From Escherichia coli (lineage in GTDB: Bacteria; Pseudomonadota; Gammaproteobacteria; Enterobacterales; Enterobacteriaceae): DNA of 64,000 nt. Every line of letters begins with the position of its first letter. Position 1 is the stretch's first letter. The notes under the pieces were generated by a model. It searched no databases, was not told the DNA's origin, and saw only the letters and a list, made by a program, of their open reading frames with translations. The translations under genes and the position numbers were made by a program. The stretch lies in assembly GCF_001677475.2 (NCBI RefSeq), contig NZ_CP015229.1, one strand, 5' to 3'. Below are positions 47,719 through 51,269 of the stretch, one piece after another.

Positions 47719-47794
47719 GGGTGATTAGCTCAGCTGGGAGAGCACCTCCCTTACAAGGAGGGGGTCGGCGGTTCGATCCCGTCATCACCCACCA
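47719..47794 (+). tRNA. valX: tRNA-Val (anticodon UAC), copy 2
   Basis: Identical 76-nt sequence to copy 1, separated by a 44-bp spacer. Confidence 0.9.
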
Positions 47795-47798
47795 CTTC

Positions 47799-47874
47799 GG
47801 GTCGTTAGCTCAGTTGGTAGAGCAGTTGACTTTTAATCAATTGGTCGCAGGTTCGAATCCTGCACGACCCACCA
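47799..47874 (+). tRNA. lysV: tRNA-Lys (anticodon UUU)
   Basis: GGGTCGTTAGCTCAGTTGGTAGAGCAGTTGACTTTTAATCAATTGGTCGCAGGTTCGAATCCTGCACGACCCACCA. Confidence 0.9.
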
Positions 47875-47878
47875 ATGT

Positions 47879-47906
47879 AAAAAAGCGCCCTAAAGGCGCT
47901 TTTTTG
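47879..47906. terminator. Intrinsic terminator after tRNA operon (AAAAAAGCGCC-CTAA-AGGCGCTTTTTT), bidirectional with xapR
   Basis: Perfect stem with flanking A/T runs. Confidence 0.7.
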
Positions 47907-47982
47907 CTATCTGCGATTTGCGAAATTGCCTGATGCGCTTCACTTAGCAGACTACTATTTCCGGCAATTCCTGTCTCCTCAC

Positions 47983-48867
47983 CTACTGTGTCAATGCAGC
48001 CAACAGCTTAACCATCGCGGGCGTCACCTGCTGTGTTTCATAAACAATATATAAATCTGCAGGGATGCGCTGTTTGAGCGGACGGAAAATGACACCTGGC
48101 CAGTTCATTTGTGCGTAGCTGTCCGCTATCAATGTGATACCAATGCCCATACTGACCATGGCGAGTACCGTTTGCGGTTCATTAACTTCGCGAATAACAA
48201 CCGGTGAAAATCCCACCTGCTGGCAAACTCGCTGCAAAAAATCCCAGTCAGTGTACACGGGCGGCATTGTAACAAAATACTCGTCACGTAGCGCTTCCAG
48301 CGGGACGGTGGAAAATGATGAGAAATGATGCTCTTCAGGCATCGCCACCAGAAACGCCGATTCATGCAACCGTAAGCTGGTAAAACCTGCAGGTGGTTCT
48401 GTTGCCATTCGCCAGATACCGGCATCGAGTTCACGTCGTTCCAGCAGGGTCATTTGCATCGCGGGCATCTTTTCGCGAAAAAGAACGTCAACGTTAGGAT
48501 TTTCCCTGAGGAATCGCCGCATAACCGGGCGCATCCGTCCCCACATTGCCGTTCCCACTACGCCGAGTTCAATCCGCCCTGCTTCTCCCCGACCTATTTG
48601 TTCAACCCGAGCCAATACATTATTAGCATTCACCAGCAATCGACGCGATTCTTCCATCAAGATTTTGCCCGCGTGTGTCAGTACGACGCTGCGCGAATGG
48701 CGAATAAAAAGCTGCGTGCCGAGTTGATTTTCCAGCTCTTTAATATGAATACTGAGCGGAGGCTGAGACATATTTAAACGCGCTGCTGCGCGACCAAAAT
48801 GCAACTCTTCCGCTACGGCAAGAAAATAACGGAGCAACTTAAGATCTGTTCTGTATACGCGTTCCAT
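47983..48867 (-). CDS. xapR: LysR-family activator of xanthosine operon
   Basis: Start placed at MERVYRTDLKLLRYF (about 294 aa); N-terminal LysR HTH. Confidence 0.85.
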   Translation of the reverse strand: MERVYRTDLKLLRYFLAVAEELHFGRAAARLNMSQPPLSIHIKELENQLGTQLFIRHSRSVVLTHAGKILMEESRRLLVNANNVLARVEQIGRGEAGRIELGVVGTAMWGRMRPVMRRFLRENPNVDVLFREKMPAMQMTLLERRELDAGIWRMATEPPAGFTSLRLHESAFLVAMPEEHHFSSFSTVPLEALRDEYFVTMPPVYTDWDFLQRVCQQVGFSPVVIREVNEPQTVLAMVSMGIGITLIADSYAQMNWPGVIFRPLKQRIPADLYIVYETQQVTPAMVKLLAALTQ

Positions 48868-48907
48868 AATTAAGTGCTCCATATAATAAATACATCGTAT
48901 TAAATTA

Positions 48908-49069
48908 TCATGGCATAAAGTATTTCACCACCAGATATCCGACATACATAAACACAATGGATAATATACCTGGTAATACATTTGGTACAGGAATAGGCAA
49001 GCGCACGATTGTAAACAAAGCACCAATGCCAAAACCAACGCCGGAAGAAAATAAAATATCTTTCACTAA
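48908..49069 (-). CDS. Candidate small hydrophobic protein (53 codons, GTG start), unannotated
   Basis: Minus-strand ORF VKDILFSSGVGFGIGALFTIVRLPIPVPNVLPGILSIVFMYVGYLVVKYFMP with AAGG Shine-Dalgarno-like sequence about 8 nt upstream; two predicted hydrophobic segments; not in ORF track (no ATG). Confidence 0.25.
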   Translation of the reverse strand, partial: LVKDILFSSGVGFGIGALFTIVRLPIPVPNVLPGILSIVFMYVGYLVVKYFMP

Positions 49070-49118
49070 TTAACCTTTATCATAAAAGCAGCTCTGAAGA
49101 GCAGAGCTGCGAATCCTT

Positions 49119-50375
49119 TTAATGAGCCACCGCTCGATGCTTTATCTTTTCAGGGTCATGATTATATTTAAACCCAAAGAAAAATATCACTGCGAGAAAA
49201 AGAGCATATCCTGCAAACACCAGCCAGATAGTTTGCCAGTCTTTTACGCCATCCACCGAAAAGTAATCTACTGCCATACCGCTCAGAATCGAGCCAATCC
49301 ATGCGCCGACACCATTTACCATGGTCATAAAGAGCCCCTGCGCGCTGGCACGAATGCTGGAATCAACTTCCTGTTCGACAAATACCGAACCAGAAATATT
49401 GAAGAAATCGAATGCACAGCCATAAACAATCATCGACAGCAGCAGCAAAATAAATCCGGTTGTTGACGGATCGCCATAGGCGAAGAAGCCAAAGCGCAGC
49501 GTCCAGGCCACCATACTCATCAGCATGACGGTTTTAATTCCAAATCGCTTTAAAAAGAATGGGATAGTCAGTATAAAGCCCACTTCTGCCATCTGTGAAA
49601 CCGACAGTAAAATGGAGGGATATTTCACCACAAAACTGTCAGCAAACTCCGGGTTACGGGCGAAATCATGTAGGAACGGATTACCAAAAACGTTGGTAAT
49701 TTGCAGTACCGCACCCAGCATCATGGCAAAGAGGAAAAAGATGGCCATGCGTGGATTTTTAAACAGCACGAAGGCATCCAGACCCAGCTTGCTGGCAAGC
49801 GATGTGGTCGTTTTTTTCTCCGCAACCGGAATCTTCGGCAAAGTCAGCGCATAAGCCGACAGCAGCAATGACGCACCGGACGCGATATACAGCTGCAGAC
49901 TACTCAATTCCAGATGCAGCAGGCTTACTGCCCACATCGCGACAATGAACCCCACCGTACCAAAAACGCGAATGGGCGGGAAAGCGGTCACCGGGTCAAG
50001 CCCTGCCTGGGCAAGACAGGAATAAGAGACGCTGTTCGATAACGCAATAGTCGGCATAAACGCCATCGCATTGACTAACATCACCCAAAACATCATATCC
50101 GGATCAGTTACGGATGCCGCATAAAAAAGTACGCCCGCACACACCAGGTGACATAGCATGTATGCACGTTCTGCGCGCAGCCATTTGTCTGCGATGATCC
50201 CCATTATACCAGGCATAATAATCGCGGCGATCCCTTTGGAACTGTAAACCATGCCAACATTAGCGCCGGTGAAATGAAGGGTATTAATCATGTAAGAACC
50301 GAGGGTAACCAGCCAGCTCCCCCAGATAAAATATTGCAAAAAGGACATTACCTTTAAGCGCAAAGCGATGCTCAT
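49119..50375 (-). CDS. xapB: Xanthosine:H+ symporter (MFS nucleoside permease)
   Basis: 418-aa MFS ORF. Confidence 0.9.
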   Translation of the reverse strand: MSIALRLKVMSFLQYFIWGSWLVTLGSYMINTLHFTGANVGMVYSSKGIAAIIMPGIMGIIADKWLRAERAYMLCHLVCAGVLFYAASVTDPDMMFWVMLVNAMAFMPTIALSNSVSYSCLAQAGLDPVTAFPPIRVFGTVGFIVAMWAVSLLHLELSSLQLYIASGASLLLSAYALTLPKIPVAEKKTTTSLASKLGLDAFVLFKNPRMAIFFLFAMMLGAVLQITNVFGNPFLHDFARNPEFADSFVVKYPSILLSVSQMAEVGFILTIPFFLKRFGIKTVMLMSMVAWTLRFGFFAYGDPSTTGFILLLLSMIVYGCAFDFFNISGSVFVEQEVDSSIRASAQGLFMTMVNGVGAWIGSILSGMAVDYFSVDGVKDWQTIWLVFAGYALFLAVIFFFGFKYNHDPEKIKHRAVAH

Positions 50376-50435
50376 AATCGTTTCCTTGTCGCATCATATG
50401 GCCTCACTCAGTGAGGCCGTTTATTGTTGTTTTAC

Positions 50436-51269
50436 TCAGGCAATTTTGCGCAGAAAGCCGCAAATAAGATTAATAAAGTTTTGCTTTGAGAGTTCCGCTG
50501 CTGCCAGCGTTTGGGCATGAGAAAGCTTCACGTCACTCAGACCTTCCGCCATGTTGGTAATCGCAGAGACCGCAACGACTTTAAGGTCGCAATGGCGAGC
50601 TGAAATAACCTCAGGCACCACAGACATACCAACAACATCCCCACCAATAATTTGCATCATGCGAATTTCCGCCGCAGTCTCGAAATTCGGCCCCGGATAC
50701 GAGACGAACACGCCCTCCGTCAGAGAGAAACCCTCTTCTTTTGCCACTTTTTGTAACAGTGCGCGGTATTCCGCATCGTAGGCATTTGCCAGTGAGAAGA
50801 AACGCTCGCCAAAACGATCATCGTTAAGACCCACCATCGGCGTACCTGGCATGGCGTTGATATGATCTTTCAATGCGACCAGGCTGCCTGCCCCCACTTC
50901 CGGACGCAGCGAGCCTGCCGCATTGGTGCAGAACAGTAGCTCGCAGCCCAGCAGCTTAAAGGTACGAATTGCGTCAGTCATAATGGTCATTCCACGACCT
51001 TCGTAGAAATGTCCGCGACCTTTCATACATACCACCGGTACGCCCTGGAGATGGCCCAGCACTAACTCCCCCGCATGACCATGTACCGTACTTACCGGGA
51101 AGCCCGGCAGCTTTTCGTAGGAAATTGCGACAGCGTTCTCAATCTGATCGGCCAGCGCGCCCAGCCCGGAACCTAAAATAAAGGCCACTCGTGGCGTGAA
51201 ATCAGGTTTATAAGTCTTGATAATATCTATGCAAAACAGCGGGTTATGAGAAAATTGAACCTGAGGCAT
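50436..51269 (-). CDS. xapA: Xanthosine (purine nucleoside) phosphorylase II
   Basis: 277-aa PNP/MTAP family ORF. Confidence 0.9.
   Translation of the reverse strand: MPQVQFSHNPLFCIDIIKTYKPDFTPRVAFILGSGLGALADQIENAVAISYEKLPGFPVSTVHGHAGELVLGHLQGVPVVCMKGRGHFYEGRGMTIMTDAIRTFKLLGCELLFCTNAAGSLRPEVGAGSLVALKDHINAMPGTPMVGLNDDRFGERFFSLANAYDAEYRALLQKVAKEEGFSLTEGVFVSYPGPNFETAAEIRMMQIIGGDVVGMSVVPEVISARHCDLKVVAVSAITNMAEGLSDVKLSHAQTLAAAELSKQNFINLICGFLRKIA

Follow-up and report, generated by a model that had tools for sequence, protein, structure and literature searches.

The small gene xapX between xapB and xapR of Escherichia coli encodes a conserved, predicted membrane-hairpin protein with a possible accessory role in nucleoside catabolism

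A conserved small gene in the xanthosine cassette

The spacer between xapB and xapR of Escherichia coli contains a small gene, xapX, which by comparative sequence evidence is a genuine protein-coding gene under purifying selection at the protein level, and which is the fourth gene of the xanthosine cassette xapA-xapB-xapX-xapR. The explanation that best accounts for the observations together, and towards which we lean, is that xapX is a real gene of the XapX family whose product forms a predicted inner-membrane hairpin and may act as a dispensable accessory of nucleoside catabolism. The gene is already catalogued and is not novel. A previous sequence-only reading of this DNA had proposed a small two-helix membrane protein at this position, with a chance open frame as an equal possibility that sequence alone could not decide; purifying selection, membership of the family model TIGR03510 and the predicted fold all bear out the membrane protein. 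Coordinates refer to the window, that is, the whole stretch of 64,000 nucleotides analyzed, unless stated otherwise.

The features of the locus, all on the minus strand, are as follows.

50436..51269, minus strand: xapA, xanthosine phosphorylase (PNP_UDP_1), first gene of the cassette
49119..50375, minus strand: xapB, xanthosine:H+ symporter (MFS, NHS family), directly 5' of xapX; Pfam Nuc_H_symport confirmed in orthologues
49074..49077, minus strand: Shine-Dalgarno-like AAGG of xapX, 7 nt 5' of the GTG
48908..49066, minus strand: xapX coding sequence, supported by the ORF list, TIGR03510, synonymous variation, dN/dS and the PGAP CDS WP_000651752.1
47983..48867, minus strand: xapR, LysR-type activator, starting 40 nt past the xapX stop and with its own GGAG at 48880-48877

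The xapX frame begins at a GTG (49066-49064) and ends at a TGA (48910-48908), giving 52 codons plus the stop, and its 52-residue product is MKDILFSSGVGFGIGALFTIVRLPIPVPNVLPGILSIVFMYVGYLVVKYFMP. The minus-strand GTG frame and the peptide had been read correctly from the sequence alone, with an end placed at 49069, 3 nt beyond the true end at 49066. At 49069-49067 the frame reads TTA, with a TAA stop just before it; since this stop lies two codons 5' of the GTG, the GTG is the sole start that preserves the XapX N-terminus. The position of the start is constant between genera, with either ATG or GTG as its codon. The ribosome-binding site AAGG suggested earlier is present at a spacing of 7 nt, and purine-rich AAGG/AGGA motifs occur at like spacing in four to five other genera, including Salmonella, Phytobacter, Chimaeribacter and Entomohabitans. 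A GRAVY of +1.31 bears out the earlier description of the peptide as strongly hydrophobic.

We note that the length of the spacer depends on the xapR start that is chosen. The open frame of xapR extends upstream to an ATG at 48882 (MEHLIMERVY..., 299 residues), and the previously given gap of 236 bp is correct for that start; all annotations use the start at 48867 (294 residues, GGAG 9 nt 5'), for which the spacer measures 251 nt. Beyond the 3' end of xapR, an RtT sRNA repeat is annotated between tRNA-Lys and xapR in K-12-type loci (loci L001/L002, 1550-1675; window ~47750-47980). Divergent alleles (L004-L006) are without the RtT feature, and their tRNA-Val/Lys cluster is ~154 bp nearer xapR.

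Conservation and variation of xapX

The length of the frame was not informative. Complete ORFs of at least 52 codons arose in 13.8% of 5000 dinucleotide-preserving shuffles of the 251-nt spacer, so that the length of xapX alone is not significant; because of this result we dropped the length argument, and the decision rests on comparative evidence. Base composition is also low in G+C, with 35% in the xapB-xapR spacer and 38% in xapX vs 48-51% in neighboring genes. The shuffles, the composition and the lack of any experimental detection of XapX in the E. coli Ribo-seq and protein-detection supplements examined would all suit a chance open frame in the AT-rich region upstream of xapR that was propagated by automatic annotation, but we reject this reading as having a negligible chance of being correct, given the pattern of synonymous variation, constant length and low dN/dS described below.

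A 601-bp region around xapX was found in 4084 of 5426 complete E. coli genomes at 90-100% identity, and the exact 52-residue protein occurs on at least 1000 contigs. We aligned six alleles of the cassette from xapA to xapR, in which 5-13% of columns are variable depending on the segment, with differences at 5-9% of columns for the xap cassettes. Eight of the 159 xapX columns vary, every one at codon position 3 and every one synonymous, which argues against a chance frame; the probability that all eight sites share one given phase is ~1.5e-4. Read in alternative frames, all eight sites would be nonsynonymous, with the exception of one opposite-strand frame (six of eight synonymous). The same six alleles differ at 11 residues in XapA, 10 in XapB and 8 in XapR.

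Across genera, the frame has exactly 52 codons and zero indels in E. coli, two Salmonella lineages, Chimaeribacter, Entomohabitans, Phytobacter and Pragia (counted here as seven enterobacterial genera). Nucleotide identity to E. coli xapX is 70-79% among these lineages and dS exceeds 1. Where dS was measurable, dN/dS ranged from 0.004 to 0.17, mostly 0.05-0.17, which is comparable to the 0.02-0.09 of xapB and xapA. Conservation and dN/dS had been put forward earlier as one way to check the frame, and frame-disrupting indels in close relatives as evidence against it; the dN/dS values (0.004-0.17) indicate purifying selection, and none of the seven genera has such an indel. Constant length at this degree of divergence is a further argument against a chance frame, as are homologues at 37-50% identity in other phyla and in archaea.

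The cassette as a whole (window 47983-51269) falls into bands of identity, with 1064 records at 99% or more, 1645 at 95-99% and 1376 at 90-95%. Divergence of this degree is unusual for a chromosomal locus of E. coli and suggests old haplotypes or recombination. In two complete E. coli genomes, IS1 has taken the place of xapA, xapB and part of xapX, and xapR remains (L007, 4105-4888; L057, 4001-4761). Two protein variants (P0019 and P0034) have XapX fused in frame, after residue 28 or 40, to an apparent read-through of an insertion element, which we take to be IS1.

Annotation status and family membership

The annotation of xapX differs between resources. In two sets of evenly drawn E. coli RefSeq genomes, which included PGAP-annotated MG1655 records, 29 of 30 and 39 of 40 genomes carry it under the PGAP label "DUF1427 family protein" (WP_000651752.1); the single unannotated genome in each set has an IS1-associated deletion at xapX. 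The curated K-12 reference, NC_000913.3, has no feature between b2405 and b2406, where xapX occupies 2522518..2522676 on the minus strand. The exact XapX sequence appears as "xapX domain protein, TRANSMEMBRANE" in the supplement of a 2024 preprint that surveyed intergenic small ORFs of Enterobacteriaceae (PMC11188072). The earlier description of the frame as unannotated thus holds for NC_000913.3 only, and fails for PGAP, TIGR03510 and that preprint.

Family searches place the product in an established group. XapX scores 64.2 bits (E=5.8e-18) against the NCBIfam model TIGR03510 "XapX", for which the cutoff is 27.8, and aligns to model positions 2-48 of 49; it also has the two-helix hydrophobic layout and lies at the namesake site between xapB and xapR. 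A Pfam scan of E. coli XapX returned no family at E<=1, and the gathering score of PF07235 (DUF1427) was not reached. Among 28 aligned diverse relatives, all 28 match TIGR03510 and 24 weakly match PF07235 (best E=4.3e-6). A profile built from enterobacterial XapX recovered 56 clusters (50% identity) at E<=1e-3 in 1.84 billion proteins, and a profile of diverse members recovered 1728 proteins at the same threshold. By these searches the family is widespread in bacteria and archaea, and it is without assigned function; we found no paper on XapX function in the literature on XapX or DUF1427. The one paper found on DUF1427, from 2005, speculated about a plant-associated role (PMC554113), which is unsupported, as members occur in enterics, Vibrionaceae and archaea.

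The supplement of the 2024 preprint also lists a second, distinct XapX paralogue, MDIILSLIAGAIIGFIFTLIKLPIPAPAAWPGVFGIIGVLSGNQIFNYLFNK, in Citrobacter (NZ_CP022049.2, 13475-13634; PMC11188072). Entries there that cluster with this paralogue come from Kosakonia, Klebsiella, Enterobacter and Leclercia, and it differs from the xapB-xapR gene (PMC11188072).

Predicted fold

XapX is predicted to fold as an inner-membrane helical hairpin. The AlphaFold2 model, computed with an alignment of relatives as input, has helices at residues 2-20 and 31-50 joined by the loop VRLPIPVPNV, with a mean pLDDT of 94. The first helix is glycine-rich (GVGFGIGA). The core of the family reads G-x3-G-x-(L/F)-(F/Y)...(K/R)-L-P-I-P-A/V-P...G...G-I...G-Y, in which the helix-joining loop (R/K)LPIPxP is nearly invariant; across the 28 relatives, L23, P24, P26 and P28 vary little or not at all. 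A profile search of the PDB gave a best E of 0.21, with no solved relative by sequence, and a Foldseek search of the PDB with the model gave no match.

Expression signals

Two further features, both on the minus strand, bear on expression of xapX and xapR.

49084..49110, minus strand: hairpin of 9 bp (6 G-C) with a 5-nt loop, followed by TTTTAT, from a terminator scan; RNA fold -15.9 kcal/mol
48883..48911, minus strand: weak sigma-70-like match ATGATA-17-TATTAT (9/12), overlapping the xapX stop codon

The hairpin, which resembles an intrinsic terminator or attenuator, sits directly past the xapB stop and 20 nt before the start of xapX. Its position is kept in Salmonella and Phytobacter, its sequence is not; in Chimaeribacter the T-run is missing, and in Entomohabitans the hairpin is absent. 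Because xapR begins only 40 nt past the xapX stop, the two genes are probably co-transcribed. The gap between them is 39-51 nt in E. coli, Salmonella and Phytobacter and 111-119 nt in Chimaeribacter and Entomohabitans. The match at 48883..48911 is a possible xapR promoter; a transcript from it would be without the xapR GGAG. A promoter scan of the spacer yielded two matches, vs 2.0 expected in shuffles, and thus no convincing promoter for xapX or xapR. Judging from the site of xapX, past the xapB hairpin and 40 nt before xapR, its expression is probably low and linked to that of xapR.

Published data sets add some information on the interval. DirectRNA-seq with and without bicyclomycin placed an "orphan" Rho-termination region with its peak at 2522662(-), 14 nt inside xapX (window ~49052), and reads there were low in LB, with 42 upstream and 28 downstream (PMC7815308). 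The peak inside xapX fits weak translation in LB, and the region was classed as "orphan" because xapX is missing from the reference annotation. Genomic SELEX found a binding peak of the RpoN (sigma-54) holoenzyme in the xapB-xapR spacer (window 48868-49118; PMC8743547), in which no convincing GG-N10-GC motif was seen by eye. An Rfam scan of the spacer gave sub-threshold noise only and no known RNA element. XapX is absent from the accessible supplement entries of three E. coli studies (Stringer 2021, PIRT-seq and an acid-stress Ribo-seq study). Such missing Ribo-seq and protein entries are weak negative evidence, because the xap locus is nearly silent without xanthosine and barely transcribed in LB.

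Genomic context of XapX relatives

We surveyed the neighborhoods of XapX relatives in a small, non-random sample, with a locus search whose narrow alignment favors members carrying LPIPAPNVL. The order xapA-xapB-xapX-xapR is common to K-12, Salmonella, Chimaeribacter, Entomohabitans and Phytobacter. In Chimaeribacter the cassette lies at another chromosomal site, next to metG, and comparison of these loci shows xapX traveling with xapA-xapB-xapR when the cassette sits elsewhere in the chromosome. In Pragia, xapX and a deoC-family aldolase gene overlap by 16 nt, and the latter separates xapX from the LysR gene.

Short-form relatives (~50-65 residues) are found beside other nucleoside-catabolic genes. 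Aeromonas caviae has a NupC-type CNT nucleoside transporter gene followed by XapX and then deoC-deoA-deoB, and an Enterobacterales metagenome-assembled genome combines a CNT transporter, yjdM, XapX, an unknown ORF, a deoB-like gene and a nucleoside phosphorylase. In Salinivibrio and Photobacterium, XapX is immediately 5' of deoD or a related phosphorylase gene. The haloarchaeon Halomarina carries a nucleoside hydrolase gene, ECF transporter genes, a second nucleoside hydrolase gene and XapX with a 4-nt overlap, and in Natrinema XapX adjoins a 5'-deoxyadenosine deaminase gene. On a Yersinia frederiksenii plasmid, an MFS_2 transporter gene and XapX are separated by a 2-nt gap. XapX lies directly past a transporter gene in E. 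coli, in Aeromonas and on the Y. frederiksenii plasmid.

Longer XapX forms occur in different surroundings. These adjoin FmdA/AmdA amidases (15 of 16 neighboring ORFs) in Pandoraea, Cupriavidus, Afipia, Ancylobacter, Oxalicibacterium, Actinomycetota, Bacillota and others. The amidase clusters contain tandem XapX paralogues, the first of 75-85 residues and the second, ~10-30 nt later, of 63-64 residues (L024, 5001-5434; L019, 5001-5457; L022, 5001-5460), next to an FmdA/AmdA amidase gene and an AraC::FmdA fusion gene. This pairing suggests that the two paralogues may form a hetero-oligomer. In Rhizobium and Agrobacterium, a 96-residue form overlaps the gene of a 660-residue amidohydrolase. Other contexts include an FMN reductase and, in a nanohaloarchaeon, an unrelated neighborhood. 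Because many members are in non-nucleoside contexts, a nucleoside-specific role cannot be the general function of the family.

XapX was absent from the Y. pseudotuberculosis xapA-xapB-like locus, from the Mesobacillus locus of a nucleoside hydrolase and NHS permease, and from the Klebsiella nupG locus; NHS transporters in general therefore do not require XapX. The possibility of an obligate XapB subunit was rejected, given the existence of xapA-xapB-like cassettes without XapX.

Proposed role and alternatives

As a tentative proposal based on gene neighborhoods, XapX may be an oligomerizing, dispensable membrane accessory of nucleoside-catabolic modules rather than an obligate subunit of one specific transporter. 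We arrived at an accessory role because relatives are found with three unrelated transporter families and with phosphorylases or hydrolases, are coupled to soluble enzymes, occur as paralogue pairs and are absent from some xapAB-like loci. In this proposal, XapX hairpins would oligomerize through the small-residue faces of their helices, and the oligomer would serve nucleoside uptake and catabolism as a dispensable membrane accessory, either by associating with the transporter or by holding a soluble phosphorylase or hydrolase at the membrane. A wider form of the proposal, to which we give similarly limited credence, is that XapX could be a widespread bacterial and archaeal membrane module that partners cytosolic enzymes releasing small nitrogenous products. 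Its homo-oligomers, or hetero-oligomers of paralogues, would then tether the enzyme beside an uptake system or provide an exit for the product. The partner enzymes meant here are purine nucleoside phosphorylases, nucleoside hydrolases, FmdA/AmdA amidases and amidohydrolases.

The main rival to the accessory role is an autonomous small channel or efflux pore, which we regard as rather improbable. XapX hairpins, as homo-oligomers in E. coli and as paralogue pairs elsewhere, would release a catabolic product: xanthine or another free base from nucleoside breakdown, or, beside amidases, ammonia or acid. When nucleosides serve as growth substrates, E. coli consumes the pentose and excretes the base, as a pore of this kind would allow. 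The common denominator of the neighbors, a cytosolic enzyme that releases a small product rather than any one transporter family, is also consistent with a pore, and XapX is often translationally coupled to the enzyme and not to the transporter (4-nt overlaps; a shared stop/start with the amidohydrolase). Small-residue-rich helices and tandem paralogue pairs suggest oligomers. However, neither the PDB profile search (best E=0.21) nor Foldseek (no match) revealed likeness to a known channel, a nucleobase-selective pore made from a 52-residue hairpin would be unprecedented, and no one product is common to all XapX contexts.

Position in the operon raises a second alternative, that xapX is mainly a cis-acting leader ORF whose translation couples to xapR expression or shields the transcript from Rho, the peptide being incidental. 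The gene lies past a terminator-like hairpin and 39-51 nt before xapR, so that a separate promoter for xapR would have little space; the Rho-termination region peaks 14 nt into xapX (PMC7815308), and xapR is reported to be constitutive (PMC7205307). Yet the amino acid sequence of XapX is itself strongly constrained, and hundreds of relatives have no downstream xapR (Vibrionaceae, Aeromonas, archaea and amidase clusters). Pragia has a deoC-family gene between xapX and the LysR gene, and the gap widens to 111-119 nt in Chimaeribacter and Entomohabitans. Because the peptide is conserved in lineages without xapR, we consider a leader function improbable as the main role of xapX; an additional cis effect could exist.

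That XapX is a small toxin that damages membranes, or a holin-like peptide, after the fashion of type I toxins is highly improbable: XapX is short, very hydrophobic and two-helix, and 3 weak Pfam matches among the 28 relatives are to a phage holin family (2) or Hol_Tox (1), but such matches are typical of hydrophobic low-complexity similarity. XapX is also chromosomal and usually single-copy, and in many phyla it lies within catabolic operons, often with translational coupling, with no prophage or plasmid-addiction contexts and no known RNA element at its locus.

Significance for annotation and for the family

The practical point is modest, as xapX is no new kind of element. Still, NC_000913.3 omits a gene with clear purifying selection, its own NCBIfam model and near-universal PGAP annotation in the sampled genomes. 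The xapX interval counts as non-coding in analyses that rely on the K-12 reference genes, such as Ribo-seq ORF calls, transposon-insertion screens and the assignment of "orphan" 3'-ends. The gene encodes a small membrane protein within a well-studied model operon, and its relatives recur by nucleoside-catabolic genes in distant lineages. Study of E. coli xapX could provide a function for an entire domain-of-unknown-function family, and if the membrane-module reading is true, E. coli xapX would be a tractable model for that family.

Comparison with known systems

Several small membrane proteins are known accessories of E. coli transporters and complexes, including AcrZ with AcrB, KdpF with KdpABC, MgtS with MgtA and CydX with CydAB. 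Like XapX, these proteins have fewer than ~55 residues, are hydrophobic, are encoded beside the gene of a larger membrane protein or inside its operon, and were historically missed by annotation. Some lineages do without XapX, and accessory subunits are usually dispensable in this way. In contrast, the known proteins have one transmembrane helix, compared with two predicted in XapX, and share no known sequence relationship with it. XapX further differs in that it adjoins NHS/MFS, CNT and ECF transporters and is often found with soluble enzymes in the absence of a transporter.

Within its own family, the paralogue pairs of the amidase clusters in Pandoraea, Cupriavidus, Afipia, Ancylobacter and others share the domain and the invariant PIPAP loop with E. 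coli XapX. They differ from it by an N-terminal "YVYVGRxE", charged C-terminal tails, the tandem arrangement and the lack of nucleoside genes. The closest comparison is with the TIGR03510/PF07235 family as defined, of which E. coli XapX is the namesake and with which it agrees in length class, in the succession of glycine-rich helix, LPIPxP and glycine-rich helix, and in genomic site.
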